A DNA stretch of 64,000 nucleotides from Deltaproteobacteria bacterium (GCA_027317185.1 DAHVFB010000001.1:35954-99953), one strand, 5' to 3'. Shown: positions 19,839 to 41,076, numbered from the stretch's first letter. Made by a program: numbers and translations. Notes: generated by a model not told the origin, from the sequence alone.

Positions 19839-19858
19839 TCAGTGAAAAATTTCAGTCT
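19839..19858 (+). promoter_or_regulatory. Candidate late-promoter/activator site TCAGTGAAAAATTTCAGTCT upstream of the lysis genes
   Basis: Near-identical 20-mer recurs at 33801-33820 upstream of the head gene gpI (19 of 20 positions). Built from direct TCAGTG/TCAGTC half-sites. Confidence 0.35.
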
Positions 19859-19925
19859 GTTCGCTTCGCCAAACTGTCTCTACTCTGCGCGAGTGACCTG
19901 TCCTGAAACATCAATTGATTCAACC

Positions 19926-20450
19926 ATGAACACAGATTTGTTTCGTAATGCGCCATCATCTGGCTACCCACAGGCATTTGCGGTCGCTCTCGCCCGCGTA
20001 TTTGCCGACGAGGGCGGTTATAGCGATCAGCGTAACGATCCGGGTGGCGCCACCAAATATGGAATTTCGCAGCATCAGTATCCGACGCTCGACATTGCGA
20101 AGCTGACGCGAGACGAAGCCGCAACAATTTACTACCGCGACTGGTGGCAGCGTTTCGACTTCGGTTCGTTGCCCGATACTGTCGGCGGCAAACTGTTTAA
20201 TTTGGCAATTAATATCGGTCCGCGCGAGGCGTCGCTGTGCTTGCAGCGCGCGTTGCGGGCCTGCGGCCATCGGGTGGCCGAAGATGGCGCACTTGGTGAT
20301 CAATCCCGCGCCGCGGCGCAATCCGCCGATCCAGCAGCGCTCGCTGCGGCGCTGCGCTCGGAAGCTGCGGGCCATTATCGAGTGCTGGCCGTCTCGGATG
20401 CTCGCCGCAAAGTGTTTCTCGAGGGCTGGCTTAATCGCGCTTACGAATAA
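19926..20450 (+). CDS. Endolysin, glycoside hydrolase family 108 (N-acetylmuramidase)
   Basis: EGGYSDQRNDPGGATKYGI signature of GH108. The track ORF starts at 19842. ATG 19926 is preferred because the promoter motif overlaps 19842. Confidence 0.75.
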   Translation: MNTDLFRNAPSSGYPQAFAVALARVFADEGGYSDQRNDPGGATKYGISQHQYPTLDIAKLTRDEAATIYYRDWWQRFDFGSLPDTVGGKLFNLAINIGPREASLCLQRALRACGHRVAEDGALGDQSRAAAQSADPAALAAALRSEAAGHYRVLAVSDARRKVFLEGWLNRAYE

Positions 20451-22557: not shown

Positions 22558-23094
22558 ATGCCACCCAGGTCCAAGACGAAATTGCTGCCAGCCGCGTTAC
22601 GCGAGGAACTTGAGCGCCGCCTGCTGGAAAAAAGCTTCAGCGGCTACCGGGAGCTTTCGCGATGGCTGGCCGAACAGGGCTACTCAATCACCCACGCCGC
22701 GTTGCACAAGTACGGCCGCAGCTTCGAGCGGCGGCTTAAGCAGGTGAAACTGGCCACTGCGCAGGCCCGCGCGATCGTCGAAGGCGCGCCCGATGACGAC
22801 AATCGGATCAACGAAGCGATGCAGATGCTGATCCAGCAGCGGCTGTTCGAAATTCTGGTCGAAGTCCAGGGCGACGAGCTCAAGGAGATCAACCTGCACG
22901 CGCTGGCCCGCTCGGTGGCGGAGCTGGGACGCGCATGGGTGATGCAGAAAAAATGGAAGGAAGAGACACGCGCGATAGTGGCCGGCAAGGTCAACGCCGC
23001 GGGCGAGAAGATCACCGGCGTGGCGCGCAATGCCGGGTTGACGCCGGAAACCGAGGACCGCATCCGCAAAGCCCTGCTCGAAATACAGGTGTGA
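22558..23094 (+). CDS. Mu gp27-like protein (DUF3486), terminase small-subunit role
   Basis: LPAALREELERRLLEKSFSGYRELSRWLAEQGYSITHAALHKYG matches the gp27/DUF3486 N-terminus. Directly precedes the large terminase. Confidence 0.55.
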   Translation: MPPRSKTKLLPAALREELERRLLEKSFSGYRELSRWLAEQGYSITHAALHKYGRSFERRLKQVKLATAQARAIVEGAPDDDNRINEAMQMLIQQRLFEILVEVQGDELKEINLHALARSVAELGRAWVMQKKWKEETRAIVAGKVNAAGEKITGVARNAGLTPETEDRIRKALLEIQV

Positions 23095-23096
23095 CG

Positions 23097-24629
23097 ATGA
23101 CCCCGCAAACCGACAAACTTTCAATTCTGCTTCCGTATCAAAGCCGCTGGATTGCCGATCCGGCGCAGGTCAAGGTGTGCGAAAAATCACGCCGCGTGGG
23201 TATCACCTGGACCGAAGCGGCCGATGCGGCGCTGGCGGCCGCCAGTCAGCGCGGCAGCGACACCTGGTATATCGGCTACAACAAGGACATGGCGCTGGAG
23301 TTCGTGTGGACCGCCGCCGAATGGGCGAAACGGTTCAATCGCGCCGCCCGCGAACTCGAGGAAATCGCGATCAACGACGAGGATCGCGACATCCTCGCCT
23401 ATCGTATCCGCTTCGCCTCGGGCCACAAGATTACGGCGCTGTCGTCGCGTCCTTCCAACCTGCGCGGCAAGGACGGGCGCGCGGTGATCGACGAGGCCGC
23501 CTTCCACGACGATCTCGCAGGCCTGATGAAGGCGGCGCTGGCCTTCACCATGTGGGGCGGCAAAGTGCGCGTGATTTCCACCCACAACGGCGCGGGCAGC
23601 GCCTTCAACGAACTGGTGAGCGACGTTCGCGCCGGGCGGCTCAACTATTCGCTGCATCGAATCGCCTTCGACGAAGCGATCGCGCAGGGCCTGTTCCGCA
23701 AAATCTGCGAACGCAACGATCGCGAATGGAGCGCGGCGGCCGAGCGCGCGTGGCGCGACGAGATCGTCGACTTCTATGGCGACAACTGCGACGAGGAGCT
23801 GTTCTGTACTCCGCGCGCCAACTCCGGCGCCTATCTGTCGACGCCGCTGATCGAAAGCCGGATGCGATCAGCCAGTCCAGTGGTGCGCTGGGCGATGCCG
23901 GCGGAGTTCGCCGGCGAACGGGATGAGATCCGATCCAAGATCGCGCTGGATTTCTGCCGCGAACAACTCGATCCGGCAATCGCGCTGCTCGACCCTTCGT
24001 TGATGAGCTGCTTCGGCGAAGATTTCGGACGCAGCGGCGACCTGACGGTTATCTGGCCGCTTCAGATCGAGGCGCGCCTGACGCGCCGCACGCCGTTCGC
24101 GGTCGAGCTGCGCAACATCCCGTTCCGTCAGCAGGAGCAGATTTTGTTTTATATCGTTGATCGCCTGCCGCGTTTTTTCGCCGGTGCGATGGACGCGCGC
24201 GGCAACGGGCAATACCTGGCGGAAATCGCAATGCAGCGCTACGGCAATCGGATCAAGCAGGTGATGCTGTCGGCCGAGTGGTACCGCGAGCAGATGCCGC
24301 GCTACAAGGCGGCCTTCGAGGACGGCACGATCGAGCTGCCCAAGGACGACGGCATTTTGTCGGACCATCGATCGCTGGTGATGGAGCGCGGGGTGGTGAA
24401 AGTGATGGAACGCCGCGAACGCGACGCCACCGGCGGACGCCATGGCGATTCGGCGATCGCCGGAGCGCTGGCCTGGTTCGCCTCCTATCAGGACGCCGTC
24501 GAATATGACTATGCGCCGATTTCGCGGGTCGCGGCGCGGGCGCTGGAACATGACATGTCAAATCGCGCCGGTGCGTCCGAGGATGCGTTGTCGGATCGCA
24601 GCCGCCGCTTCGGCATGGGCGCGTGGTGA
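23097..24629 (+). CDS. Terminase large subunit (Mu gp28-like)
   Basis: 511 aa from ATG 23097. ATPase plus nuclease layout, conserved VIDEAAFHDD and STHNGAGS regions. The track's N-extension comes from the preceding gene's frame. Confidence 0.8.
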   Translation: MTPQTDKLSILLPYQSRWIADPAQVKVCEKSRRVGITWTEAADAALAAASQRGSDTWYIGYNKDMALEFVWTAAEWAKRFNRAARELEEIAINDEDRDILAYRIRFASGHKITALSSRPSNLRGKDGRAVIDEAAFHDDLAGLMKAALAFTMWGGKVRVISTHNGAGSAFNELVSDVRAGRLNYSLHRIAFDEAIAQGLFRKICERNDREWSAAAERAWRDEIVDFYGDNCDEELFCTPRANSGAYLSTPLIESRMRSASPVVRWAMPAEFAGERDEIRSKIALDFCREQLDPAIALLDPSLMSCFGEDFGRSGDLTVIWPLQIEARLTRRTPFAVELRNIPFRQQEQILFYIVDRLPRFFAGAMDARGNGQYLAEIAMQRYGNRIKQVMLSAEWYREQMPRYKAAFEDGTIELPKDDGILSDHRSLVMERGVVKVMERRERDATGGRHGDSAIAGALAWFASYQDAVEYDYAPISRVAARALEHDMSNRAGASEDALSDRSRRFGMGAW

Positions 24630-24750: not shown

Positions 24751-26130
24751 ATGAAGCTATACGACGCGTATGGGCGAGCGGTAGACACCGGGCGCCTGCG
24801 TGAAGAACAGGCCGCGCCGACCTTCGCCGGCATCCGCAATATCTACTCCGTGATGCATCCGTCGGCCGGACTGACGCCCGAGCGCCTGTCCGCGATCTTG
24901 CGCGAAGCTGAGTCCGGCGATCCATATCTGTACCTCGAACTGGCCGAGGAGATGGAGGAAAAGGACCTGCACTACCTGGCCGTGCTCGCCACCCGCAAGC
25001 AATCGGTGGCCCAGCTCGACATGGTGATTCGACCGGCTTCGAGCGCGTCCGAGGACCTGAAGATCGCCGCGATGGTGCGCGAGGTGCTGCTCGACGGCAC
25101 GCTGGCGATGGAAGCGTTCCTGTTCGACAGCCTCGATGCGATCGGCAAGGGCTTTTCGGCGGTCGAAATAATCTGGGATACCGCCGGACGCACCTGGGTT
25201 CCACAGCGCCTGGTATGGCGCGATCCGCGCTGGTTTCTGTTCGATTGGATCAATGGCGAAACGCTGAGGGTACGCACGCTCGACGCGAGCGACCGCGAGT
25301 CGGAACTCGAGCCCGATCGCAGCAGCCATTTCCAGGGATCGGGCGCCGGTGCTCGATCGGGACTGCAACCGTTCACCGAACCCCTCCTGCCATACAAGTT
25401 CATCGTACATATCGCCAAGGCCAAGGCCGGACTGCCGATTCGGGGCGGGCTGGCGCGTGCGGCCGGCTGGTCGTACCTGTTCAAGAATTATGTGCTCAAG
25501 GATTGGGTCACCTACACCGAAGTTTTCGGCCAGCCTTTGCGGGTGGGCAAATATGGACCGGGCGCGACTGAGAACGACAAGCAGGTTTTACTCGATGCGG
25601 TGACCAATATAGGCAGCGACGCCGGTGCGATTATTCCGGACTCGATGGTGATCGAGTTCACGGAAGCGCGCCAGCAGGGCAGTATCGAGCTCTACGAAAA
25701 CTTCTGCGCCTACCTCGATCGCCAAGTCAGCAAGGCGGTGCTGGGACAGACGCTGACCACCGAGATGCCGCGCGAAGGTGGATCGCGCGCGGCCGCCCAG
25801 GTTCATCAGGCGGTGCGCCGCGACATCCTAAGCGCCGACGCCCGGCGGCTGGCCGCCACGATCACTCAGGATTTAATTAGACCGATTGTCGATCTGAATT
25901 TCGGGCCGCGCCCGCGCTATCCGCAATTCACGCTGGCCTTGCCCGAGGATCAGGACCTCAAGGTGTTTGCCGACATCATTGCAGAACTCGCCGACCGCGG
26001 GCTGCGCATCAGTCAGAAGACGGTGCTCGACAAGCTTGGATTGCCCGAGCCGCAGGCGGGAGAGCCGCTGCTGGAATCGATGCGCAATACGTCCGCCTCC
26101 GCCACCGCCGATCAGTCGCGCAAAGCATGA
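24751..26130 (+). CDS. Portal protein (Mu gp29 / DUF935 family)
   Basis: 459 aa from ATG 24751 (GGAG SD). N-terminal MKLYDAYGRAV...IRNIYSVMHPSAGLTPERLSAILREAESGD typical of Mu-type portals. Confidence 0.8.
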   Translation: MKLYDAYGRAVDTGRLREEQAAPTFAGIRNIYSVMHPSAGLTPERLSAILREAESGDPYLYLELAEEMEEKDLHYLAVLATRKQSVAQLDMVIRPASSASEDLKIAAMVREVLLDGTLAMEAFLFDSLDAIGKGFSAVEIIWDTAGRTWVPQRLVWRDPRWFLFDWINGETLRVRTLDASDRESELEPDRSSHFQGSGAGARSGLQPFTEPLLPYKFIVHIAKAKAGLPIRGGLARAAGWSYLFKNYVLKDWVTYTEVFGQPLRVGKYGPGATENDKQVLLDAVTNIGSDAGAIIPDSMVIEFTEARQQGSIELYENFCAYLDRQVSKAVLGQTLTTEMPREGGSRAAAQVHQAVRRDILSADARRLAATITQDLIRPIVDLNFGPRPRYPQFTLALPEDQDLKVFADIIAELADRGLRISQKTVLDKLGLPEPQAGEPLLESMRNTSASATADQSRKA

Positions 26131-26240
26131 TCGAAGGTTACGGAAATCCCCCGCCCGATCCCCGCCACTAACCCCACCATAAAAAGGACCGCCTGCCCGG
26201 CCACGGACAGGCGGTCTCACGCCTTTAGCAGCAGCCCGAG

Positions 26241-27602
26241 CTAGATCGGCGGAACCGGCAGCGGATAGAACGTCACCCCTGCGCCGTTGGAACAACTGAA
26301 GGTGGTGCTGGTGCCTGCGCAGTTACCAGCCGGAAGCGCTGTACTTATACCGCCCGCGTTGCTCTTCAATTTGGAAAGGTCGACTCGCACGAGAAAACCA
26401 AAATCAGTCGCCAAGCCGAAGGTGCCCTTGCCACAAGCCTGAATGGCGGTCGAGTTAGGCTCAAACCTGGTAGACCATATGTTGCCGTTGGGGTCATTTG
26501 GCAGGTTGGCGGAAACCGAAGAAACATCGCTGCTTTGGATCTGAGCGACTTTGGTGTTCGGTAGTTGCATTAAACCAATGCCCGGCTCGTACTCCTCGGT
26601 TATGAAAGCCTGGTGCGATTTCCTGTCCACCGCCGCGCTCAAATCAGCGTTATTACTGTCGATCACGACCGGAATCGAGTTGGGCGGCGTTCCCGCTTCA
26701 GTGACCGTACACGACGATCCGGGATTCACCGTAGCGCCATTGAGATTCAGAACGATGATGGTTGAATCGCCTCCGATGTCGTCGGCGGCCAGCCAGACTC
26801 CGGTGGAAGGATCGACCGCCGCAGAATCCCAACCCGTGGAATTAGAGCCAGCAGCGAGGTTCGCGTCGGTAAGCAAGCAGCTTTCACTGCCGGTGACGTC
26901 GATCATCTCCATCGAGTCAGCCGTGGACGGCGGGTTGTCGTTGGCATTCAGGATCAGATTGGTGGTCGGATCGAATGCGAAATTGTCGCTCTGCGAACCG
27001 GTCTGAGAGGCAACGATCGGACCGAAAGTATTGGTGGTTAGATCGAAAGCTGTAAAGCCGGTGCAGGCGCCGGCCGACGCGCACCCGCTGCCATCGGTAG
27101 TGGCAACCAAAACCTGTTTATGCTTCGGATCGGCAACGATGCCACCGTTTGCCGCGTCCGCGCCCGTCGGAAAGGGAAACGGCGAGCCGGCAATCGGGTT
27201 ACCGGTGCTGTCGAAAATATCGAGGAATCCGTTATTCCCGTTCTGTCCGCTGGAGACCAATAAATGCCGACTGCGCGGGTCGAACGCCACCGCGATCGCA
27301 TAATCCGGATGTCCGATATCGAGCGTGGCGACGTGCGGCGACGCGGTATCTGGATTAACTCCCAGATTGAGCACCTCGACCTGACCATCGCCACTCGTGC
27401 CCAGAAAGTCCAAGGCCACGAAGGCGTAGTTCTTTTTGCAATCCACCGTGGTAAGTGCAGCGGTAGTGGATGCGTTACCGCCAGTTACCTTGGGCGTGAA
27501 CCTGTTATTCGAACTCGAATCACACCCCCCCATCGTGAGTACAAATATTAAGCTGGTAAACGCGAGCGCGCTTACCATAGTTGTCTTGAAATTCGGACGC
27601 AT
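26241..27602 (-). CDS. Secreted lipoprotein, beta-propeller-like repeat protein (cargo)
   Basis: 453 aa. Signal plus lipobox (LTMGGC). Repeated strand-like segments. Confidence 0.45.
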   Translation of the reverse strand: MRPNFKTTMVSALAFTSLIFVLTMGGCDSSSNNRFTPKVTGGNASTTAALTTVDCKKNYAFVALDFLGTSGDGQVEVLNLGVNPDTASPHVATLDIGHPDYAIAVAFDPRSRHLLVSSGQNGNNGFLDIFDSTGNPIAGSPFPFPTGADAANGGIVADPKHKQVLVATTDGSGCASAGACTGFTAFDLTTNTFGPIVASQTGSQSDNFAFDPTTNLILNANDNPPSTADSMEMIDVTGSESCLLTDANLAAGSNSTGWDSAAVDPSTGVWLAADDIGGDSTIIVLNLNGATVNPGSSCTVTEAGTPPNSIPVVIDSNNADLSAAVDRKSHQAFITEEYEPGIGLMQLPNTKVAQIQSSDVSSVSANLPNDPNGNIWSTRFEPNSTAIQACGKGTFGLATDFGFLVRVDLSKLKSNAGGISTALPAGNCAGTSTTFSCSNGAGVTFYPLPVPPI

Positions 27603-27766
27603 TGTTTCCCCTCCCTGAAGATAGATAAAGTCCTATTAACCGACTAAAGGATAGATTATCTGTAGCAAAGGCTGAAAATGAAGTCTACGCGTCTAAGCTA
27701 ATTATCCGCGAAAATTACGTCAAATAGGCGTGCGAAGCCCACTGCGGCAAAAGGTTTGATCGGGTA

Positions 27767-27859
27767 GGTCAGGGCAAGATGGGCGCGGTATGGCCGAAGC
27801 GCGCGTTGGTCATCGAAGAAATCAGGCTGAAACTATTGAAACCGGAACTGTAAAGCTCC
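27767..27859 (-). pseudogene. 3'-terminal fragment (last 29 codons plus stop) of a Kelch-repeat gene paralogous to 29144..30412
   Basis: About 95% nucleotide identity to 29141-29233. Reading frame preserved (ELYSSGFNSFSLISSMTNARFGHTAPILP*). No upstream ORF body. Confidence 0.5.
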
Positions 27860-27987
27860 ATCCGGCGGCCCTCAAACGCATGGCGTCGCGGTATGGCGCA
27901 AGCTCACACCTCGCCCCGGAGGGCTAAGGCGCCGGAGCTGCGCGTCTTCTCAGGCGCCGCTTAACGCCGGGACGGCAATCGGCAGCG

Positions 27988-28974
27988 CTACGGGGCGCGG
28001 TTGTTCACGTTGGTGCAGGGCCCTGCGCTGGTATCCTCAGCCAAATTAGCGCCCGAATTGTGCAGCGCCTTCACCAGCACGGCGTTGCCTGGACATATGA
28101 GCGAGACGCCGTCAGTGTGGTTGCCGGTGGCGGAGGTGGCGGTTATCAGGCCGTTTTCGTCCAACTCAACCCCGTTGTTTCCGTTCTTAGTGAATTTGCC
28201 GTTGGTGACGAGGTTGTCCTGGTTTGATTGGTTTGACGACGATGCGTAGACACCGTCGCCGACGTTGCCGGTCGCAGAGCAGCTGACGATCGAGTTGCAG
28301 CAGCCGGTCGCGTCGATGCCGTCGCCGCCATTGCCGGTGGCCTTGCTATTGGTCACGGTGCTACAACAACCACCCGCCACGATTCCGACGTCGCCGTTGT
28401 TGGTGGCTGTGGTATTGACGATCGTGAAGCAGCACCCGTTTGCATCGATGCCCCTACGCTGGTTGTTAATCGCTATCACATTGGCAAGGGTGCTGCAGCA
28501 CGCGACCTCGAGACCGTCGCCATCCCCGCTGCTCAACGACGTTACGGCCCCGGACAGCTTCACATGGTCGATGGTGGCGCTGTTCGTGGCTTTAAGCGCG
28601 AGATCTACGTTGAAGCCGGTGACGGTGCCGTTAAGAATCGCTATTTCGCTCAGGGTGTTGCCCCCGTCCGTGATGCCGAACATGCTGGTGCTGGAACTGG
28701 CGTTGCCGCTGATCGTGTGTCCACCCAGGTCGATCGACACGTTGTTGGCCGTAATCGTGATGCAGGTGGCCCCTGAGGCGGCCAGGTTCCCGGCCAATTT
28801 GTAGTTGCCCGCGCTGTTGATGGTCGTCCCGCAGGCGGATATCGGAGTAGACGCCGAAGGCGCGGCGGCGCTCGGGGGCGAGTCTAATAATCCCAGACCG
28901 AGCAACGCCGCAAACAGCACTAGCGCAACAAGTTTAACCACCCCGGCTCCCCGCTTTTGTGTTGATCGCGCCAT
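27988..28974 (-). CDS. Secreted right-handed parallel beta-helix repeat protein with paired-Cys (GCC) repeats (cargo)
   Basis: 328 aa. Signal peptide. Tandem ~22-aa repeats ATGNGGDGIDATGCCNSIV / NNGDVGIVAGGCCSTVT. Confidence 0.55.
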   Translation of the reverse strand: MARSTQKRGAGVVKLVALVLFAALLGLGLLDSPPSAAAPSASTPISACGTTINSAGNYKLAGNLAASGATCITITANNVSIDLGGHTISGNASSSTSMFGITDGGNTLSEIAILNGTVTGFNVDLALKATNSATIDHVKLSGAVTSLSSGDGDGLEVACCSTLANVIAINNQRRGIDANGCCFTIVNTTATNNGDVGIVAGGCCSTVTNSKATGNGGDGIDATGCCNSIVSCSATGNVGDGVYASSSNQSNQDNLVTNGKFTKNGNNGVELDENGLITATSATGNHTDGVSLICPGNAVLVKALHNSGANLAEDTSAGPCTNVNNRAP

Positions 28975-29143
28975 AAGATATCCCCCCTACTGCCCGCCAA
29001 GACGATATAAATCGAAACAGTTAGCTAAGCCCGGCGTCGGTTGTAGCAGAGCAGATAAGCTAAAGTACAGCGATCAAGGCAAAATTGAGCTGAAAGCGGG
29101 TCACGTATAGAGCGATCTTCAGGCAGGCGTGTTAAGGCAGGGG

Positions 29144-30412
29144 TCAGGGCAGGATGGTCGCGGTATGGCCGAAGCGCGCGTTGTTCATCGAAGAAATCAG
29201 GCTGAAACTGTTGAAACCGGAACTGTAAATCTCCGCCGTATTGACCGCGCTGGCGGCGTTCAAGCCGTTCAGGCCGTCCTGGCCACCGGTAATCAGCGCC
29301 ATCCCGGCCAGCGGACCGCTGCTGAACGCGGTCGCGGTGTGATAGCGCCGGAAATCCGTCATATTGCCGGTCGGCCCGAAGGCTCCGCCCGGATTGTAGA
29401 GTTCCGCGGTATAGGTCAGCGTGTTGCCGCTGGTCAGCCCGCCGCATAGCAGCACCAGACCGTTTTGCAGGATCGCGGAAGCGAACTGCATGCGGCTGAT
29501 GGTCATCAGGCCCGCCGCGGCGAACGAATTGGAGGCGGGATTGTACAACTCGGCGGTCGAGGTGATCACGCCCGCGTTATCCTGGCCACCAGCCAGCATC
29601 ACCTGCCCATTGAGCACGCCTCCGGAGAAAAAGATCGCGTTGTCGAAGAAGCGGCTGTCTTGCATCAGGTTTGTGATGTTCGTGAATTTCTGGGTGGTGG
29701 GATTATAGAGTTCGGCCTCGTTCTGCACGGCGGTCATCGCGGAGTTCGCGAAACCGCCCGCGATCAGCACCTGGCCGTTGGTGAGCAGCGTCGCGGTATG
29801 TGCCGCGCGCGGGAAATGCATCGGCGCGGGAGTGGCGGTGAATTTATCGGTAGCTGGATCGTACAATTCTGCACTGGCCAACGGATTTCCGTTCGCATCG
29901 ATGCCGCCGGTGATCAAAACCATCCCGTTATTGAGCAAGGTGGCAGTATGCAGCGCGCGAACGGAGGTCATGCTGGCGGCGATCGGATGGAACAACTGAT
30001 TTTTTTCGTTGAACAACTCCGCCGATTTCAGCGTAGTCCCGTTGCCGTCCTGCCCACCGGTAACCAGAATGGCGCCGCTGTGCAGGATGGTCGCGGTATG
30101 AAACGCGCGCGCCGCGTTGAGCGAATTAGTGGTGGTAAAGGTCTGGGTGGTTGGATTGAAGAGTTCGGCCTGCGCAACCGCCGCGCTGCTGGCATTGATA
30201 CCGCCGACGATGAGGACATCGCCTGAGAGCGGACCCGGAGTGGCAGTGCCGCTCGAGGTCGGCGTACCGCTGCTGCTACTGGTCACCTCGACCGCGCCGA
30301 AGCCGGGACCGCAGCCCTGCCCCACCATCGCCAGCCAGCCGAAGGTCACCAGCGCCGCGGCCGCCAACAGGATATTTCGTATCGTCGCTAGTAATCCGGC
30401 CGTGCGCTTCAT
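29144..30412 (-). CDS. Kelch-repeat lipoprotein (cargo)
   Basis: Start at MKRTAGLL (GGAGGGGG SD) with lipobox GQGCG. Five or more Kelch motifs (FHTATLL..G.VLITGG). The track N-extension is rejected. Confidence 0.7.
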   Translation of the reverse strand: MKRTAGLLATIRNILLAAAALVTFGWLAMVGQGCGPGFGAVEVTSSSSGTPTSSGTATPGPLSGDVLIVGGINASSAAVAQAELFNPTTQTFTTTNSLNAARAFHTATILHSGAILVTGGQDGNGTTLKSAELFNEKNQLFHPIAASMTSVRALHTATLLNNGMVLITGGIDANGNPLASAELYDPATDKFTATPAPMHFPRAAHTATLLTNGQVLIAGGFANSAMTAVQNEAELYNPTTQKFTNITNLMQDSRFFDNAIFFSGGVLNGQVMLAGGQDNAGVITSTAELYNPASNSFAAAGLMTISRMQFASAILQNGLVLLCGGLTSGNTLTYTAELYNPGGAFGPTGNMTDFRRYHTATAFSSGPLAGMALITGGQDGLNGLNAASAVNTAEIYSSGFNSFSLISSMNNARFGHTATILP

Positions 30413-30613
30413 GCCCCCTCCAATCTGCAAGCTCTCCACGAAGGCTACGGCTATAACATAGCCCAAAGGCCCACGAAACGAGTTGCAAAATAGTGAATTA
30501 TTCTGCGCTTTGAAAATGCAGTCGCCGGCGCGCCCCATCCTGCTCGTGCTGCTCGTGGCATACCGGCCCGGACTGCGGTAATTTGGAATCGCAGGTACGG
30601 GGATGGCAGTCAT

Positions 30614-31243
30614 ATGAGAGCTACATCGAATTCTTCGCCAGCGCGGATTGCGGCGCCCTGCAGCACGGAGCGAAAATCGATCGCGCTGACTTGGCCGATC
30701 GTCACGCTAGTGCTGACCGCGTTCCTGCCGCTGAGCGGATGCCTGGGAGCCTCGGGACTCGGCGGACTCGGAGGAATGAGCGGCCTCGGCGGCATGAATC
30801 CGTTCGGCGCCACCACCGCCACCCCGCAGGAACGTGCGATGAACGTCGAGCCGATGCTGACGGCGGCGGGTTTCCAAACACTCGCGCCGCAGAAGACAGA
30901 GCATCAGCAGCAGCTCGCCGCGCTGCCGGCGCTCACGATGAACACCTATACCACCGCGGAGGGTCAGCAGCGCTATTGGTATGCCGACCCCAGTTATTGC
31001 CATTGCATGTATGTCGGCGACGCCGGCGCTTATCAGCGCTATGAAACCCTGAAGTTGCAAAATCAGCAGCTCCAAAACGAGCAGCAGGCGCAACAGCAGC
31101 AGATGCAGATGCAACAGATGCAAATGCAGCAGATGCAGATGCAGCAAATGCAGATGATGGGACCGTTCGGATCGCCGATGGGCGGCTACGGCAGTCCGTT
31201 CGGCTTCGGCATGGGCGGCCCTGGCATGGGCTTCATGTTTTAA
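30614..31243 (+). CDS. Lipoprotein with C-terminal Gln/Met tandem repeat (cargo)
   Basis: Lipobox LSGC. QMQMQQMQMQQMQMQQMQMM encoded by a 9-nt tandem repeat at 31100-31158. Gly/Met-rich tail. Confidence 0.5.
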   Translation: MRATSNSSPARIAAPCSTERKSIALTWPIVTLVLTAFLPLSGCLGASGLGGLGGMSGLGGMNPFGATTATPQERAMNVEPMLTAAGFQTLAPQKTEHQQQLAALPALTMNTYTTAEGQQRYWYADPSYCHCMYVGDAGAYQRYETLKLQNQQLQNEQQAQQQQMQMQQMQMQQMQMQQMQMMGPFGSPMGGYGSPFGFGMGGPGMGFMF

Positions 31244-31353
31244 GTTTTCCTCGACCGCGATCGATTCAATCCAGACCGGGAATTGCCTGCTTCGCCTTTA
31301 TCCGCAAACACAATTTGCGCACCGCTGGTTGAGGCGGCGTTCCGCCTGCTAGT

Positions 31354-32172
31354 TTGCTGGCGATGAATTTCGCCGCGTTCCTTGCCGCCTGCCATGCGCA
31401 ATGGCCCGAGTTCGACGATCCGCGATCACTGTCCAAATCTTTGAAGCCGACCGACCGGCGCCTGGCCGATCTGCCGAAAAAGATTGAAGGGATGGCGACC
31501 GAGAACAAGCTGATGCTGCTCAATCTCGCAGTCGCGCAGCTTGGACCCGGCGAGGTTTACGTCGAGGTGGGATGCTACAAGGGCCTAAGCCTGGTTTCGG
31601 CGGCCGCGGGCAACGATCGCGCGTCGATTTATGCCTGCGATAATTTCTCGCAATTTCAATCCACCGCCGACCAACTGCGCCGCACGATTGCGTCGCATAC
31701 GCGGCCGGAGCAGGTGCATTTCTTCGATATGGAGTTTCGCGAGTTCCTGCGGATCGCGCCGTGGCGGCCGGCCCGTATCGGAGTTTATTTCTACGATGGC
31801 GGGCACTCGTTCGCCGATCAGTACGAGGGGCTTAAATATGCGCTGGGCGATCTCGCCGACGATGCATTAGTGATCGTGGATGACACCAACAAGCGCAACG
31901 TTCGTTCCGCGAATCATCTGTTCGCCGCCCTCGTTCCGGGTTTCGAGCCAATTCTCGACCTGCGCACGCCGCGCAACCATTCGCCGACCTGGTGGAACGG
32001 AGTCCAGGTATACCGCTATCGGCGGCCGGCCACGATTGCGGCGCTTGCCGGCGATCCGCTTGGCTATCGAATCCGGAAATTTCTGTGGGATGATGTTTTT
32101 CTGCGCTCGCGCCACGCCTACCGCGCGCGCCGCAGCGACCTGAAATTCTATCTGCGCCGCAAGTTCAAGTAG
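31354..32172 (+). CDS. Class I SAM-dependent methyltransferase (TylF/MycF-like, cargo)
   Basis: VYVEVGCYKG SAM motif, FYDGGHS, IVDDTN. Confidence 0.55.
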   Translation: MLAMNFAAFLAACHAQWPEFDDPRSLSKSLKPTDRRLADLPKKIEGMATENKLMLLNLAVAQLGPGEVYVEVGCYKGLSLVSAAAGNDRASIYACDNFSQFQSTADQLRRTIASHTRPEQVHFFDMEFREFLRIAPWRPARIGVYFYDGGHSFADQYEGLKYALGDLADDALVIVDDTNKRNVRSANHLFAALVPGFEPILDLRTPRNHSPTWWNGVQVYRYRRPATIAALAGDPLGYRIRKFLWDDVFLRSRHAYRARRSDLKFYLRRKFK

Positions 32173-32265
32173 GCAATGAGAGAGGGTGGCCCGGATCGTA
32201 AAGGACCTGTCGGAATTCGACCGCGTATAGAGATGGCAGTACGCGCGGCGTGCGACCCAGGTAAG

Positions 32266-33510
32266 ATGAAAATGGCAGCCAAAACGCTTTTCACCAACGC
32301 TAACCTGGTTCTGGACGGATTCACGGAACTCCAAAAATCGTTCGACGTGCTGGTCCACGATAACCGCATAATTGCGGTGTCGCAAACGCCGCTGGCTCAT
32401 GAAGATGCAAAAGTGATCGATATTCGCGGCAGGACGCTGATGCCGGGTCTTATCGATGCGCATGCGCATATAACGGGACTGTCGCTGAGCCCGAAAAACA
32501 TCGCCTACCCGGCCTCCGAAATTGCCATCGCCGCCGCCAATTATCTGCGCTGCAGCCTGATGGACGGTTTCACCTCGATCAGAGAAGCGGGCGGCGCCGA
32601 CCACGGCGTCGCCCGCCTGCTGGCCGAAGGGAAAATCATTGGGCCACGAATGTTCTACTCGGGGCGCGCGCTAACGCAGACCGGCGGAGGCGCAGACTTT
32701 CGCTCTCCCGATGAGGTCCTGGATCCGTGTGGTCACACCGGTCCGTTTACGGTGATGTCCGTGATCGCCGATGGAATTGACGAGGTGCGCAAGGCCGCGC
32801 GTGAAGAACTGCGCCGGGGCGCGGCGCAAATAAAAGTATTCGTCTCCGGTGGAGTGGTGTTTCCATCGGAAGCTCATCCAACTATTTACGAATACTCATT
32901 GGAAGAATTGCGCGCGATTGTGGAAGAGGCGAACGGCCGCGGCACCTACGTCATGGCCCACGTCTATACCGATGAGGGAGTTCGCCGGTGTTTAACCGCC
33001 GGCGTCCGATCTATCGAACATGCCAATTTCGTCAGCGAAGAAACGGTCGCCATGATGGCCCGGCACGGAGTCTACCTCGATCCGACCTTCATATCGCTCG
33101 TGCAACGAATCGAGTCAGCGGCCGAAACCGGGCTGCCAAACAATATCGTTGACAATTTGAAGACGACGGTGGCGAGGGGCCAGCAAGTCTACCGCTGGGC
33201 GAAGCGCTACCAGGTGCCAATCGCTTTCGGGACCGACCTATGGGGTCCAGAGGCGCAAACGTCGCAGCTCAGAGAATTTGAAATGCGAATGGAGCTCGAC
33301 GATGCGCCCGGTATCATTGCTTCAGCCACCCGCATCAATGCCGGGTTGCTAATGCAGAACGGCAACCTGGGAACCATTTCTCCCGGAGCCTACGCCGACC
33401 TCTTGGTCGTCGAAGGAGACCCCTTGAGCGACCTGAGGGTCATGACCGATCCTCAGAAGAATCTTAAGCTGATCATGAAGGACGGCGTAATCTACAAGAA
33501 CGAGATCTGA
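32266..33510 (+). CDS. Amidohydrolase-family metal-dependent hydrolase (cargo)
   Basis: GLIDAHAHI metal-binding motif, TIM-barrel amidohydrolase layout. Start at ATG 32266 (MKMAAK). Confidence 0.7.
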   Translation: MKMAAKTLFTNANLVLDGFTELQKSFDVLVHDNRIIAVSQTPLAHEDAKVIDIRGRTLMPGLIDAHAHITGLSLSPKNIAYPASEIAIAAANYLRCSLMDGFTSIREAGGADHGVARLLAEGKIIGPRMFYSGRALTQTGGGADFRSPDEVLDPCGHTGPFTVMSVIADGIDEVRKAAREELRRGAAQIKVFVSGGVVFPSEAHPTIYEYSLEELRAIVEEANGRGTYVMAHVYTDEGVRRCLTAGVRSIEHANFVSEETVAMMARHGVYLDPTFISLVQRIESAAETGLPNNIVDNLKTTVARGQQVYRWAKRYQVPIAFGTDLWGPEAQTSQLREFEMRMELDDAPGIIASATRINAGLLMQNGNLGTISPGAYADLLVVEGDPLSDLRVMTDPQKNLKLIMKDGVIYKNEI

Positions 33511-33800
33511 GGTACATAGCGGCGATCGCGAGGGCCGCTGTAATCATCGAGATCGGATAGCTCGCGCTGGCTGAACTTGGCTATCCGAGAAAATAGCAAC
33601 TTTTCCCGTTTATCGGTCGCCGAAAAGCAATTCGGTCTGTCTCTTCCACCAGCCGCACACGCAAGTCGCCTTAGAATTCCTTCTCCCGCTTAATTCCGAG
33701 GGAAGGTACGGAAGGGGCTTCCTGCGGGAGCGTCGAATCGCTCACGCCAAGCATTGTTCAGACCATTTCAATATTTCGCACATGGCAACTGACACTATAG

Positions 33801-33820
33801 TCAGTGAAATATTTCAGTCT
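33801..33820 (+). promoter_or_regulatory. Second copy of the candidate late-promoter motif TCAGTGAAATATTTCAGTCT, upstream of gpI
   Basis: Matches 19839-19858 at 19 of 20 positions. Preceded by the inverted repeat ACTGAC-N6-GTCAGT. Confidence 0.35.
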
Positions 33821-33948
33821 TATTGCGTCCGCTGGCAAAGCGCAGAATGCGCGAGTCTTAAGGATCACCGCATCATACCAACCGATTCCACCAACCCAGG
33901 CTATTAGCCACTGACCTTTAGTCATTCACAAGGACTCCTATTCAATCA

Positions 33949-35061
33949 ATGACTAGTCAAGCAACCAACTCCAGAACGCCGGGCGCGGCCCCCCCCCACC
34001 GCGACGCCTGGCGCACGCGGGCCCGCGGTCAACTTCCGGTGATCTCCTCTGCCACCGGTTCGTGGTCCATGCCAACTCCCGAAGTTCCCCCATCGTGGGT
34101 CGAACTCCTCCCGATCGGCGAGTTTGCGGGACGCGATGGCCGCGGGCCATTCCGCGTAAACGACCCCGCGGCGGTGATTGCCGCGACTCGGGCCTTGCGG
34201 ATGGAGGCCGGTCTTCCGATCGATTACGACCACGCCACCGACCTCGCCGCGCCCACTGGCGGACCAGCCCCGGCCGCCGGATGGATTCGAGAACTCGAGG
34301 TCCGCGCGGGATCGATTTGGGGGCAGGTCGAATGGACTCCGAACGGCGCACAGGCGATCCGGGCGCATCAGTATCGTTATCTGTCGCCGGTATTTCAGTT
34401 TTCGCGCAGCGGCGAAGTGATGCGGCTGCTGCGAGCGGGATTGACTAATAATCCGAATCTTTACCTGACCGCGATCTGCGCGGCCAACAAAAAGGAACTC
34501 GACATGGAAATGCTGATTGATCAGTTGCGTGAAATCCTAGGTCTCGACGACAACGTTGATGCCGCCCAGATACTCGAGGCGGTCCGAAATCTGGCTGCCG
34601 CACCCAACCTCCCTGAGGATGCAGCGCCCCTCAACGAGGGCGCTGGCGACGATGACGATGATGCCGAAAGCCCCGATCCGGCCCGCTTCGTGGCAATGTC
34701 GCACTTTCAGCGCGCGGTCACCGAACTGAACCATCTGCGCGCCGAGCGTGGACAAGAACGCGCCGAGCTAACCGTTGACGACGCGATTCGAGCCGGCAAA
34801 CTGGTGCCGGCGCAGCGCGCCTGGGCCGTTTCATATTGCCAGGCGGATTTCGGCGGCTTCAAGGAATTCATCGCACGTCAGCCCGCGATGCTTCCGGCCG
34901 CGCAGCACTTTGCTTCCGCTTCGGCGCCGCGCGCGAAGTCTGAAAGCCTGACGCCGGGCGAGCTCGCGATCTGCACTCAACTTGGCCTGCGTCCCGAAAC
35001 CTTTATCCAGCGCCGAGCAGCTCGCGGCCAGTTGCTGAAACTCAACAAGTTTTTCGATTAG
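33949..35061 (+). CDS. Mu gpI-like prohead protease/scaffold protein
   Basis: ELLPIGEFAGRDGRGPF...PIDYDHATDL...PAPAAGWIRELEVR...YRYLSPVF matches the FluMu/Mu I protein family. Acidic linker plus C-terminal scaffold-like region. True start may be internal (about 34069). Confidence 0.65.
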   Translation: MTSQATNSRTPGAAPPHRDAWRTRARGQLPVISSATGSWSMPTPEVPPSWVELLPIGEFAGRDGRGPFRVNDPAAVIAATRALRMEAGLPIDYDHATDLAAPTGGPAPAAGWIRELEVRAGSIWGQVEWTPNGAQAIRAHQYRYLSPVFQFSRSGEVMRLLRAGLTNNPNLYLTAICAANKKELDMEMLIDQLREILGLDDNVDAAQILEAVRNLAAAPNLPEDAAPLNEGAGDDDDDAESPDPARFVAMSHFQRAVTELNHLRAERGQERAELTVDDAIRAGKLVPAQRAWAVSYCQADFGGFKEFIARQPAMLPAAQHFASASAPRAKSESLTPGELAICTQLGLRPETFIQRRAARGQLLKLNKFFD

Positions 35062-36916: not shown

Positions 36917-37351
36917 ATGAGCTACGCCGCCGCACAGGACCTGATCGCCCGCTACTCGAATCGCGACCTGGTCCAGTTGACCAACGACGATCCCACCGTC
37001 ACCACGATTAACACCGATGTGCTGCAGCAGGCGCTTGATGACGGTTCGGCGGAAATCGACGGCTACCTCGATGGGCGGTTTGCGCTGCCACTGGCGCAAC
37101 CGCCCGCCATTTTGGCGCGGCTGGCCTGCGATATCGCGATGTATCGGCTGCAATCGCTGCGGCCGCTGCACGACCTGGCCGATGCGCGCAAGCGCTACGA
37201 GGATGCGGTCGCGTTCTTGATGGAAGTGGCCCGCGGAACGGTAACGCTGGGCTTGTCGGCGGTAGGCACGGAACCGCCATCCGCACCCGACGCAGCCGTG
37301 GTCGAGGGTCCATCGCGGGTTTTCGATCGCAACAAGCTCCGCGGCTTCTGA
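36917..37351 (+). CDS. Mu gp36-like protein (DUF1320)
   Basis: DLIARYSNRDLVQLTNDD...IDGYLDGRFALPL...LACDIAMYRL pattern. Confidence 0.6.
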   Translation: MSYAAAQDLIARYSNRDLVQLTNDDPTVTTINTDVLQQALDDGSAEIDGYLDGRFALPLAQPPAILARLACDIAMYRLQSLRPLHDLADARKRYEDAVAFLMEVARGTVTLGLSAVGTEPPSAPDAAVVEGPSRVFDRNKLRGF

Positions 37352-37390
37352 GTATCACTTACTACTAACCCGTAACGCTGAGCGAGTTAT

Positions 37391-38176
37391 TTGATGGCAG
37401 CCGTATTGGATATTCCGTGGACCGGACAAAGCTTCAGTCCCCCGTCGCCACTCGATATCGGAACTATCGAAGCGGCGATCGTGGCGCAGCTCCGTTCCAC
37501 GATAACCACGATCGAGGTGGTCCAATTTCCCGACCGTGCCGAAGCCTACCGCCTGACCCATCGAATCGGCGCGGCGCTGGTGGCTTACCGCGCGTCGAGC
37601 TACGGCGAACTCATCGATACGGCGGCAGTCGTGCAGGCGCGAACGCTCGAATTCGAGGTGCGCCTGATAGTGCGAGATCTCGGCTGGAGCTACGGCGGCC
37701 CCGGATCGGGCGGCGGACCCGGCGCCTATGCATTGCTTGAAGCCGTGCGCGCCGCATTGACCGGCTTTCAAATTCCGGGATGCCGCAAGGCTTATCCGCT
37801 CAAGGAGCGATTCGTCGAGCGCGATACTCGGGGCGGGGTCTGGATTTATTCGATCAGTTTCGCAATCGAGACCGTGGCCATGGAAGTTTCGATCCTCGAC
37901 CAGTTCCCGTTGTTTATCAGCGGAACCACAAACAATGGAAACGGGCAGACGCTTACGTCAGTCGGCGCATTTCAGGGAACCTTCGACACCAGTGGAGTGC
38001 TTCAGTTGCCGGTGGTCAATCTCTCGAACGTAATGGTTTTCGATTCGAGCGGCCGAAGCTACCTCAATGGAACCGACTTCCAGGTCGATCCAGCCAGCGG
38101 CACGCTCACCGTGATCGCCGGCGGCGGACTGGCCGCGGGAGAAACTGTGAGCGTCGCCTGCGGATACCACAGCTAG
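37391..38176 (+). CDS. Mu gp37-like protein (DUF1834) with a C-terminal shared surface domain
   Basis: N-terminus IEAAIVAQL...ALVAYRAS gp37-like. C-terminus VLQLPVVNLSNVMVFDSSGRSYLNGTDFQVDPASGTLTVIAGGGLAAGETV is related to the 35222 and sheath modules. Confidence 0.5.
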   Translation: MMAAVLDIPWTGQSFSPPSPLDIGTIEAAIVAQLRSTITTIEVVQFPDRAEAYRLTHRIGAALVAYRASSYGELIDTAAVVQARTLEFEVRLIVRDLGWSYGGPGSGGGPGAYALLEAVRAALTGFQIPGCRKAYPLKERFVERDTRGGVWIYSISFAIETVAMEVSILDQFPLFISGTTNNGNGQTLTSVGAFQGTFDTSGVLQLPVVNLSNVMVFDSSGRSYLNGTDFQVDPASGTLTVIAGGGLAAGETVSVACGYHS

Positions 38177-38243
38177 TTCAGCCCGGGCGATGCGGCGGCG
38201 GCGCCGATCTTCCGGCGCATAATCCACCACAGGAGTGACATCA

Positions 38244-39746
38244 ATGCCAGCGAGCTTTATGCACGGAGTCGAAGTAACGGAGGTCAACAGCGGCCCGCGG
38301 CCGGTAACCGTCGTCAAATCGGCGGTAATCGGGCTGGTCGGCACCGCCCCGATCTGGAGCATCAGCAATGCCCCCGCGGTCAACACGCCGGTATTGGTAA
38401 GCTCGGCGCCCGACGCGGCGCAATTCGGTCCTTTGATCAAGGGCTATTCCATTCCATATGCCCTGGCCGCTATTCAGTCCCAGGGCGCGGGCCAGGCGAT
38501 CGTCATCAATGTGTTCGATCCCACCATTCACACCAGCGCGATAGCCGCGACGCCGTTCACCTTCAGCACTACCGGCACCAGCGCCGGCACCATCAAGCTT
38601 GGCCACATGGGCGTGTCGCAGGTGGTGGTGACCAGCGATCCGGCGGGCACCACTTATACGCTGGCGAGCGACTACACGCTCGACGCGGTCAATGGCATCG
38701 TCACTTTGGTCGCGGGCGGAAGGATCGCCGCGGGCGCAACGGTACTGGTGTCGTTCGACTATGCCGATCCGACCAAGGTCAGCGATGCCAACGTAATTGG
38801 CGCCTTCGCCAGCGGCGCATATAGCGGTTTGCAGGCGCTGAAGATTACTTACGGCACGATGGGCTTCTTCGCGAGAATTTTGATCGCGCCGGGCTTTTCT
38901 CAGAATCCCGACGTCGCCAGCGCGCTTACCTCGATGGCGGACACGCTGCGCGCGATGGCGCTGGTGGACAGCGCGCCGGGCACCTCCGCCGCGACCGCGA
39001 TCGCCAACCGGAATGTCACCGGCAATGCGTTCGACACCAGCTCGAACCGTGCGATCCTGTGCTACCCACAGGAATTGTTTGTCGACAACGGTATCGATCC
39101 GACCACCGGACTGACGGTCAATGCCAATTCGATCGCGCCGCTGTCGCAGTATGTGGCGGGTGCGATGGCAGCCAAAGACCTAGCTAAGGGTTATTGGTGG
39201 TCGCCGTCCAACACCCAGTTCCAGGGCGCGCTCGGACCCGACGTGCCGCTTTATGCTTCAATCATCGATCCCGCCTCCGACGTCAACAATCTCAACGCCG
39301 AAGGTATTCTTACTGTGTTCAACAGCTTCGGCACCGGCTTGCGGGTATGGGGTAATCGATCGGCCGCCTATCCGACGAGCACCGCACCCGACAACTTCAT
39401 CAGCGTGCGCCGTACGATGGACGTGATCGAGGACTCGGTCGAATTGGCGATGCTGCAGTTCATCGATCAGCCAATATCGAACGCCCTGATCGCGTCGATT
39501 CTGGCGAGCGTCAATGGATTTATCCGAACCTTGATTCAGCGCGGCGCGTTGGTCGGTGGCAGCGCCAGTTACAATCCGGCGGAAAATCCTGCAGCTCAGC
39601 TTTCGGCCGGACAACTCGTATTTGATATCGACGTGATGCCGCCGCCGCCGGCCGAGCGCATCAGCTTCAACGTCACGATCGATACCACCCTGTTGCAGCA
39701 GCTCGGCCAGAGCAACGCCCTGAGCACCGGGACAATCCCGGCCTGA
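38244..39746 (+). CDS. Contractile tail sheath protein (Mu gpL-like) with inserted surface domain
   Basis: MPASFMHGVEVTEV...VIGLVGTAP matches the Mu L N-terminus (YHHGVQVLEIN..IVGMVCTA). C-terminal GLRVWGNRS sheath core. Start ATG 38244 (AGGAG SD). Confidence 0.85.
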   Translation: MPASFMHGVEVTEVNSGPRPVTVVKSAVIGLVGTAPIWSISNAPAVNTPVLVSSAPDAAQFGPLIKGYSIPYALAAIQSQGAGQAIVINVFDPTIHTSAIAATPFTFSTTGTSAGTIKLGHMGVSQVVVTSDPAGTTYTLASDYTLDAVNGIVTLVAGGRIAAGATVLVSFDYADPTKVSDANVIGAFASGAYSGLQALKITYGTMGFFARILIAPGFSQNPDVASALTSMADTLRAMALVDSAPGTSAATAIANRNVTGNAFDTSSNRAILCYPQELFVDNGIDPTTGLTVNANSIAPLSQYVAGAMAAKDLAKGYWWSPSNTQFQGALGPDVPLYASIIDPASDVNNLNAEGILTVFNSFGTGLRVWGNRSAAYPTSTAPDNFISVRRTMDVIEDSVELAMLQFIDQPISNALIASILASVNGFIRTLIQRGALVGGSASYNPAENPAAQLSAGQLVFDIDVMPPPPAERISFNVTIDTTLLQQLGQSNALSTGTIPA

Positions 39747-40305: not shown

Positions 40306-40641
40306 ATGGCTTACGAATCGTTAAGCGTGAATGGAGTGCCGGTAAATGCCGACGCACCCGAAGCCAATCGCGTCGTCACGCTGCCCTCGGGACGCAACGC
40401 CGCCATTCGTAAAGGCGCCGGACGCGATCTGCTCAGAGCACAGCGTGCGGCCCAAAGCGGCGAACCGACCGCGATAATTTTCGCGCTTATCGCGGAGCTG
40501 GTGCGCATCGACGGCAAGAACATCGTTTACGAGGACGTACTCGCGATGGATCTGGTCGATGTGCTCGCGCTGCAGGAGGAAGTCGCGGGCGGAAATTTTC
40601 AGGCAGCGGCGTACCCTCCGCCGCCACCATCGCCGGTTTAA
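40306..40641 (+). CDS. Tail assembly chaperone (P2 gpE / Mu gp41-like), short form
   Basis: 111 aa, between tube and tape-measure position. Pro-rich C-terminus. Confidence 0.55.
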   Translation: MAYESLSVNGVPVNADAPEANRVVTLPSGRNAAIRKGAGRDLLRAQRAAQSGEPTAIIFALIAELVRIDGKNIVYEDVLAMDLVDVLALQEEVAGGNFQAAAYPPPPPSPV

Positions 40642-40791: not shown

Positions 40792-41076
40792 ATGATCACA
40801 CGCTTGTATATTGGAAACCTGAATTTTGCGATTACCGAGGCCGGGCTGCAGGAGATGGTCGGCCGGATGACCAGCCTGCCACCAGCGCATATCGACCGCG
40901 CCGAGGTCATTCGCGATCGTGATACCGGCCGCTCACGCGGCTTCGGATTTGTCGAGTTGGCCAATTCCGAAGCCGCCCAGCGTGCGATGAGCGAGCTCGA
41001 TGGAATCGAAGTGATGGGCCGAACCCTGAAGGTTCAGATCGCGAAGCCGCGTTCGCCGATGCGCTCGCGTGCTTGA
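40792..41076 (+). CDS. RRM-fold RNA-binding protein (RNP-1 RGFGFVEL, RNP-2 LYIGNL)
   Basis: 94 aa. Canonical RNP-2 (RLYIGNLNF) and RNP-1 (SRGFGFVEL) motifs. Lies inside the tail operon. Confidence 0.7.
   Translation: MITRLYIGNLNFAITEAGLQEMVGRMTSLPPAHIDRAEVIRDRDTGRSRGFGFVELANSEAAQRAMSELDGIEVMGRTLKVQIAKPRSPMRSRA

Follow-up and report, generated by a model that had tools for sequence, protein, structure and literature searches.

The DNA analyzed here, a stretch of 64,000 nucleotides (nt) from a Deltaproteobacteria bacterium (GCA_027317185.1, DAHVFB010000001.1:35954-99953), is referred to below as the window and is numbered from its first letter. It carries a prophage-like element spanning ~17.7-48.3 kb (17710-48268), in which a head module of the phage Mu type is combined with a contractile tail of the P2 type. 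Between the portal gene of this element and its Mu I-type protease/scaffold gene lies an island of six intact open reading frames (ORFs), occupying positions 26131-33948, and it is with the content and origin of this island that the present analysis is concerned (Table 1). An initial annotation, made from the sequence alone, had named the six genes and assigned them strands and fold classes, and this description is borne out by the ORFs, by Pfam, and by AlphaFold 2 (AF2) models searched with Foldseek.

Genes of the island

The three genes nearest the portal are on the minus strand. The first encodes a protein of 453 residues that has no Pfam, PHROG, or NCBIfam match, and its AF2 model (predicted local distance difference test [pLDDT] score, 86.8) is a seven-bladed beta-propeller for which Foldseek returns YncE and WD40 proteins. 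Only 24 homologues of it were found, the named ones being from Binataceae, and they occur both in sister islands (at the related loci L001, L003, and L191) and in a purely host context (L190). The second gene encodes a 328-residue protein, again with no Pfam match of its own, that is modeled as a right-handed parallel beta-helix (pLDDT, 88.1) with Foldseek matches to the AlgE4, AlgE6, and AlgG epimerases, to polysaccharide lyases, and to tailspikes. Its homologues (only 20) carry Pfam Beta_helix/NosD, and one of them sits among ordinary host genes; homologues of the propeller and of the beta-helix protein are both found beside genes of metabolism. The third gene, for a Kelch-repeat protein, is present in L001, L003, L004, L005, L086-L089, and L191, and its ratio of nonsynonymous to synonymous substitution rates (dN/dS) is 0.29-0.36.

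The plus-strand genes begin with that of a small Q/M-rich lipoprotein (dN/dS, 0.05-0.32), which has a QMQ repeat at 31081-31155 and whose conserved ~80-residue domain defines a family of 521 cluster representatives with no Pfam model. The next gene specifies a putative S-adenosylmethionine (SAM)-dependent methyltransferase (dN/dS, 0.06-0.30) with 328 homologues, the top 120 of which are all at least 57% identical to it and, where a source is named, come nearly all from Binataceae. This methyltransferase has no PDB relative by sequence, and no characterized relative was found either for it or for the Q/M lipoprotein domain. The last gene encodes an amidohydrolase that matches PDB entry 3mkv (2e-91), itself deposited as a "putative amidohydrolase," and that scores 235.8 bits against the Xaa-Pro dipeptidase equivalog NF051886 of NCBIfam, under the 500-bit cut-off of that model. 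It is assigned to the Amidohydro_1 superfamily only.

Export signals were judged by rule and by eye. The propeller and Kelch proteins have lipoboxes of the PROSITE type (…LTMGGC and …MVGQGC, respectively), the beta-helix protein has a Sec-type signal peptide and no lipobox, and in the Q/M protein the lipobox is of the classical LSGC form. The three large proteins had been annotated as exported, and all three appear to be; the Q/M lipoprotein raises the number of island proteins with a predicted export signal to four of the six.

Table 1. Features of the island, its borders, and the surrounding element (window coordinates)
Feature	Position	Strand	Remarks
S24/HTH (helix-turn-helix) repressor, LexA-like	17710-18375	-	
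Mor-family activator ORF	19098-19502		29.1 bits vs cut-off of 24.9
GH108 endolysin	19842-20450		followed by small lysis-type ORFs
Mu gp27-like small terminase	22558-23094		
Large terminase	22935-24629 (ORF)		PHROG match only
Mu-type portal	24751-26130	+	Portal_Mu, E = 3.8e-105; last gene of lysis/packaging operon; left border of island; start inferred from MKLYDAY motif, ORF end at 26130
Terminator-like hairpin	26187-26216	-	13-bp stem with 10 GC pairs, then T-run
Seven-bladed beta-propeller lipoprotein, 453 residues	26241-27602	-	
Kelch 3'-end remnant, 93 nt	27767-27859	-	95% identical to 29142-29234
Secreted right-handed parallel beta-helix protein, 328 residues	27988-28974	-	paired-Cys rungs
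Kelch-repeat beta-propeller lipoprotein	29144-30412	-	Kelch_1, E = 4e-35; ORF to 30613, likely start at 30412
Q/M small lipoprotein, 209 residues	30614-31243	+	conserved ~80-residue domain, Q/M-rich plus Gly-rich tail
Class I SAM-dependent methyltransferase (Methyltransf_24)	31363-32172 (ORF 31354-32172)	+	Pfam, 47 bits vs cut-off of 26.3
Amidohydrolase, prolidase/carboxypeptidase type	32233-33510 (ORF 32176-33510)	+	Amidohydro_1, E = 2.7e-39
Palindrome GTGAAATATTTCAG	33804-33817	.	145 nt upstream of I start codon; candidate late-promoter/activator site; right border of island
Mu I-type protease/scaffold	33949-35061	+	Mu-like_Pro, E = 3.3e-72; first gene of head operon
Virion protein, 231 residues	35222-35917		3' of I protease
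gpT capsid, gp36, gp37	downstream of 231-residue virion protein gene		
P2-type contractile tail	ends at 48268		sheath, tube, gpU, X, D, V, W, J, I, and fiber genes

A variable junction and a layered island

A portal search of species-representative genomes yielded 80 related loci, nearly all of them in metagenome-assembled genomes of Candidatus Binataceae/Binatus, and scans of IMG/VR and metagenomes yielded ~40 further loci. The gene order of the element is the same throughout these relatives, and the distance from portal to I is what varies. It amounts to 30-415 nt at ~15 genome loci and ~15 IMG/VR loci, to 2.8-8.3 kb at 14 loci, and to at least 10 kb, with I not reached, at ~32 loci, where a very large island and a broken element are indistinguishable. 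With gaps that run from 30 nt to >10 kb, the portal/I junction is a variable hotspot, as had been suspected from the window alone. In addition, 2.7-4.4 kb is inserted between the portal gene and gene F (gp30) in several Mu-like outgroup contigs from IMG/VR that carry F (L151-L155, L163, and L178), so that insertion after the portal is not confined to the Binataceae lineage.

The six genes are distributed very unevenly among these loci. The methyltransferase and Q/M genes adjoin each other and stand by the portal in more than 50 of the 80 genome loci, and in relatives the Q/M gene is always found beside the methyltransferase gene. This pair points toward I in the window clade (L001, L003-L005, L086-L089, and L191), and it is inverted, with the methyltransferase gene directly after the portal, in a larger clade, which we call the minus-orientation clade. 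The methyltransferase tree reproduces the portal clades, and the dS of the methyltransferase is similar to that of the portal, pair by pair. These sequence comparisons identify the pair as an old core that has co-diverged with the portal under purifying selection. The initial annotation had regarded all six genes as unrelated morons, a description that this pair shows to be too simple.

The old core is also encountered away from the element. In L082, a long metagenome contig, genes for an ABC ATPase, a 220-residue protein, the Q/M lipoprotein, and the methyltransferase lie among host genes, with no phage gene within 10 kb, and in the minus-orientation clade the space between portal and I is occupied exactly by this four-gene block, in inverted orientation. 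More distant homologues of the methyltransferase (at most 56% identity) are never phage linked.

Among the element loci, the propeller and Kelch genes are common only to the window's own clade, and the two are adjacent in L001, L003, and L191. The beta-helix gene is found in no sister locus, these three included. Between the beta-helix and propeller genes of the window is a 93-nt remnant that encodes the last 29 residues of the Kelch protein and its stop codon, and this 3' duplicate of the Kelch gene, which flanks the beta-helix gene, shows that the latter was recently inserted between its Kelch and propeller neighbors. The amidohydrolase gene sits between the methyltransferase gene and the palindrome described below; none of the 80 genome loci has it, and outside the window it occurs only in L083, an identical contig. 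Of the six genes, only those for the beta-helix protein and the amidohydrolase are recent and specific to the window.

Islands at other loci hold genes for a catalase, an ABC ATPase, ~1000-residue repeat-rich proteins that by eye resemble NHL repeats, and proteins with FHA- and CAP-like sequence features, also recognized by eye. Base composition was considered as a sign of foreign origin and set aside, the difference in GC content being too small to use (0.583 in the island, against 0.605-0.626 in the phage arms and 0.60-0.615 in host DNA). We likewise rejected an invertible segment of the kind represented by the G region of Mu, because the island is flanked by no long inverted repeats (the best pair being 31 nt at 74%), each clade has a single orientation of the methyltransferase/Q-M pair, and no invertase gene is present.

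When the DNA upstream of I was aligned across the window clade, an invariant palindrome, GTGAAATATTTCAC, was revealed, and the island lies between the portal stop codon and this sequence. The window has a second copy at 19842-19855, ~84 nt upstream of the probable endolysin start, and the core TGAAANNTTTCA (TGAAA(A/T)ATTTCA) occurs only these two times in 64 kb, compared with 0.03-0.27 occurrences expected. Among relatives, 14 of 27 loci have the palindrome upstream of I, and 14 of 49 have it upstream of the GH108 gene. The former include compact loci such as L068, where it falls within a portal-to-I gap of 116 nt. To judge from its sequence, the palindrome GTGAAATATTTCA is probably a Mor/C-type late-promoter element, and it is a candidate operator for the Mor-family protein that the element itself encodes. 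Since the palindrome probably has this role, the portal/I site is read as an operon boundary. In the Mu record, the corresponding point before I has a terminator and a late promoter, and the palindrome together with the Mor gene resembles the C-dependent Plys and PI promoters of that phage. At the portal end of the island, a terminator-like hairpin would serve the convergent propeller gene and the other minus-strand genes. Terminator-like sites in the region are no more numerous than in shuffled sequences, and the case for this hairpin lies in its stem strength and its position.

We consider, with a probability of roughly 70%, that the island is a patchwork of host-type genes accreted at an operon boundary of an element with a Mu-like head and a P2-like tail that is conserved across Binataceae. 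The boundary would separate a lysis/packaging operon, ending with the portal gene, from a head/tail operon, starting with I, and genes placed there would need to interrupt neither late transcription unit. The island has three layers, namely, the old core of Q/M lipoprotein and methyltransferase; the clade-specific propeller and Kelch lipoproteins; and, specific to the window, the beta-helix gene (with the 93-nt Kelch 3' duplication) and the amidohydrolase gene. The island genes would be dispensable for particle building, and the exported proteins and the two enzymes may act, in a moron-like manner, on the envelope or periplasm to the benefit of the host or lysogen.

Several observations weigh against this reading. 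Allowing up to 2 mismatches, the palindrome was not found in the large minus-orientation methyltransferase clade; a scan of the region for the sigma-70 consensus gave fewer sites than shuffles and no convincing promoter; and portal and I could be co-transcribed in compact loci, where gaps are as short as 30-90 nt. The old core is conserved as well as the structural genes are, which could mean that it has a role in the element's own biology and is not passive cargo. The branching order of the island-bearing and compact clades has a neighbor-joining (NJ) bootstrap of at most 32%, and the portal tree is too weak to decide which of the two states is ancestral. To this should be added the ~32 loci in which large islands and broken elements look alike, and the fact that the functions of the island proteins are read from fold or family only.

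The element and its missing genes

The Mu-type head module of the element gives Pfam matches above the cut-offs for gp27, Portal_Mu, I protease, gpT, gp36, and gp37, and its portal is 37% identical to Mu H. Upstream, the element is flanked by housekeeping genes (SelB, SelD, TrxB-like, MoaC, and RNase G), and downstream by genes for a short-chain dehydrogenase and a Rieske dioxygenase. The distance from the repressor to the endolysin gene is only 1.4 kb. The Pfam families rve, Mu-transpos_C, and AAA_22, which would mark MuA/MuB, have no match in the window element, and no transposase, integrase, or replication gene was found in it or in the left arms of 14 related loci, which contain repressor, Mor, GH108, and host genes. 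In the outgroup contig L186, genes for the Mu transposase, a MuB-like ATPase, Gam, and GemA are located within the same distance of the portal. Moreover, no tRNA, Rfam family, or att-like repeat longer than 13 nt was found at the ends of the element.

The absence of such genes, and of flanking tRNAs and att-like repeats, counts in favor of a different explanation of the island, according to which it is not phage cargo. The element would be a fixed, domesticated chromosomal cluster, and the island would be chromosomal DNA situated between its two operons, much as host genes separate the loci of gene transfer agents (GTAs). This would fit the methyltransferase block of L082, which has no phage genes, and two rearranged loci, L058 (1575-2734), where the Q/M-methyltransferase pair is upstream of the lysis/packaging arm, and L076 (1-8547), where baseplate and fiber genes are directly upstream of the portal. 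It would also fit close locus pairs that share flanks at a divergence similar to that of the element. However, L067 and L072 are 85-91% identical within the element and have unrelated DNA upstream of the repressor, the window and L001 have only one flanking gene in common, and the L082 methyltransferase is nested within the element-linked ones rather than basal to them. We therefore treat an island of purely chromosomal origin as a possible but somewhat unlikely explanation.

In Mu, the lys operon ends in H-F-G and is followed by the I operon. The initial annotation had stated that the element has no F homologue and that the island has replaced F, and the first of these statements is confirmed. 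Phage_Mu_F of Pfam has no match among the annotated genes of the window, and it is not among the 25 listed of the 27 families matched, at E values up to 0.1, by 82 further ORFs of at least 60 residues in the unassigned parts. A tblastn search with Mu F and Mu G gave no match at E < 1, either in the window or among 107 related loci; in the same run, Mu H matched 92 loci and Mu I matched 37. As a positive control, the Mu F query matches directly 3' of the portal in 46 of 55 outgroup loci, whose portals are 46-60% identical, and in the other nine either the contig ends too soon or the locus belongs to a subclade with an insert after the portal. Possible hiding places for F were considered and rejected. 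A fusion to the portal or to I finds no room, given Pfam matches to residues 166-534 of 562 and 51-353 of 370, respectively, and searches of small unannotated ORFs (among the matched families listed) and of the host flanks were negative. As for G, outgroup IMG/VR loci have it between gp36 and gp37, and in the window (36917-38176) gp36 is directly followed by gp37, with no room for G.

The closest relative that bears F is L134 (portal 60% identical), with a Pfam match to Phage_Mu_F at E = 3e-17. Here, at 12084-13472, the MuF domain is fused to an NAD:arginine ADP-ribosyltransferase, which makes the product a MuF polymorphic toxin.

F is absent from all 113 loci whose portals are at least 63% identical, whether or not they have an island, and in ~30 of them the portal directly abuts I. 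In a portal tree rooted with F-bearing phages, the F-less loci form one clade (NJ bootstrap, 89%). Because the whole clade is without F and the outgroups carry it after the portal, its loss, like that of G, is, on this phylogenetic evidence, a single old event at the base of the clade. Relatives with no island are also without F; the island as it now stands therefore does not account for the missing gene, and the claim that the one replaced the other, as cause and effect, is not sustained.

An older exchange would be a variant of the same idea. A single recombination at the base of the lineage could have swapped F and its neighbor for host DNA with the Q/M and methyltransferase genes, compact forms having lost the insert later. 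In line with this, F occupies exactly the portal-adjacent slot in the 46 outgroup loci, the earliest F-less branches of the rooted NJ tree (L080 and the window clade) carry long inserts with the compact clade nested, the two orientation clades have methyltransferases that form sister groups, as one ancient acquisition would predict, and the island of L115 is eroded to the Q/M gene alone. We nevertheless find such a swap improbable. The backbone order has a bootstrap of at most 32%, ~30 loci have neither F nor an island, and G, which in outgroups is located elsewhere, is also missing, as is the whole Mu early region (A, B, Gam, and GemA), so that the loss of F looks like part of a wider gene loss and not like a local swap.

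The initial annotation had also asked whether heads assemble at all without gp30, a doubt that our sequence data do not support. All head genes are intact in the window element and under strong purifying selection, as seen from dN/dS values of 0.03-0.19 (portal), 0.03-0.08 (capsid), and 0.10-0.37 (protease) across 5-16 locus pairs, depending on the gene. Compact relatives, in which the portal directly adjoins I, have retained the same set of head and tail genes, equally constrained. The family to which F belongs is best known from SPP1 gp7, which is not required for assembly and whose loss only lowers infectivity (PMC6316719). The function of Mu F has been described as unknown, and many tailed phages have no member of the MuF family (PMC5576092). 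Given portal and capsid dN/dS values of 0.03-0.19, heads are probably still made, and the likeliest reading is that particles are produced without F.

Selection on the old core bears on another alternative, namely, that the core serves the element itself. Together with the lipoprotein as its partner, the methyltransferase might, for example, modify a component of the virion or envelope, resulting in superinfection exclusion or receptor modification. Consistent with such a role, the pair has co-diverged with the portal at dN/dS values of 0.05-0.3 across two large clades, and methyltransferases that are at least 58% identical adjoin the portal wherever the contig shows the neighbor, L082 being the sole long-contig exception. 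The core is, however, absent from ~40 otherwise intact elements (the compact and no-methyltransferase clades), and it is found away from phage genes in L082 and, among distant homologues, in L100-L108; we judge this alternative to have a small chance of being correct.

Prophage module boundaries often hold defense genes, and the island does include a methyltransferase, but an anti-phage defense hotspot is highly improbable, as the initial annotation had held, given that no PADLOC model matches any of the six proteins, that four of the six appear to be exported, and that the enzyme belongs to Methyltransf_24 (O-methyltransferase-like), has no partner nuclease, and matches a DNA methyltransferase family of PHROG only weakly (E = 7.8e-5).

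Some further features of the element were observed. A gene for a 180-residue lipoprotein (17007-17549, minus strand) adjoins the repressor gene and is the only flanking gene that the window shares with the sister loci L001-L004 (66-73% identity); it may be part of the element, as a second accessory gene. Inside the tail operon, a gene at 40795-41073 (plus strand) encodes a 92-residue RNA-binding protein with an RNA recognition motif (RRM) domain (RRM_1, E = 9e-16). This RRM gene sits between a chaperone-like ORF (40306-40641) and a putative tape-measure gene, ~22 F-less relatives have it in the corresponding place (43-70% identity), and F-bearing outgroup loci with tube and chaperone genes gave no match to it. 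The sole long ORF in the tape-measure position (41069-42214, plus strand) is short (381 residues) and rich in Ser, Arg, and Pro; it has no Pfam or PHROG match, and its conservation among relatives is confined to the C-terminal ~50-80 residues. The product may be a tape measure of atypical or degenerate form. Finally, the 231-residue virion protein, the C-terminal part of gp37 (37391-38176), and an N-terminal insert of the sheath (38235-39746) have in common a domain of ~60 residues. A sheath query cross-matches the 231-residue gene at 47-55% identity, and the precomputed Pfam assignment UCP028589 covers all three proteins in L191.

Relation to known systems and significance

The late region of the element is organized as in Mu, with gp27-like, large terminase, Portal_Mu, I, gpT, gp36, and gp37 genes, a Mor/C-family activator gene, and a probable operon break before I. 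It differs from Mu in having no F, G, MuA/MuB, Gam, or GemA, in its P2-type tail and baseplate, and in the 7.8 kb of host-type genes that lie in the break. A fusion like that of L134 is the arrangement of MuF toxins (PMC5576092), and in this respect the window lineage departs from the MuF/SPP1 gp7 family, having no MuF protein.

The position of the island recalls morons and moron hotspots. In SPP1, ORFs 8-10 lie between the portal/gp7 module and the capsid module and are extra genes not needed for assembly (PMC6316719), and here, too, variable genes that would not be needed for assembly are found between the portal and the capsid/scaffold modules. The island stands between conserved phage genes and is absent from close relatives, as is typical of morons; a sporadic, recent, and compositionally distinct character fits only part of it. 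In contrast to known morons, the inserts of the window lineage are unusually large (up to >10 kb), exported beta-propeller and beta-helix proteins dominate, part of the insert is ancient and co-diverging rather than sporadic, and at least part of it is shared with the chromosome.

PBSX-type defective prophages and GTAs offer another comparison. Like them, the element keeps its repressor, lysis, head, and tail genes and has no replication or integration genes, and it is conserved across a host lineage with its structural genes under purifying selection. It differs from them in its Mu-like rather than HK97-like ancestry and in the different flanks of some close relatives. We found nothing relevant in the literature on Binatota prophages.

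The island itself is an ordinary phenomenon, i.e., accessory genes at a phage module boundary, and the new variant is the lineage without F and without a transposase. In well over 100 genomes and contigs, the genes for a LexA-like repressor, a Mor-type activator, lysis, packaging, head, and contractile tail have been kept under purifying selection. We propose, tentatively and with less than even odds, that this lineage is a domesticated particle producer of Mu ancestry, GTA- or PBSX-like, in Binataceae (phylum Binatota). A resident of the chromosome would tolerate kilobases of host genes between its operons and could gain lineage-specific genes, such as that of the RRM protein in the tail operon.

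That more than 100 elements have retained a Mu-type head module under purifying selection without MuF/gp30 is evidence from nature that this type of head can be maintained in the absence of F, and the palindrome offers a specific candidate for their late-promoter signal. Binataceae are abundant in soils and peat, and the lack of transposition genes in this lineage makes these uncultured bacteria candidate hosts of domesticated phage-like particles of a new class.

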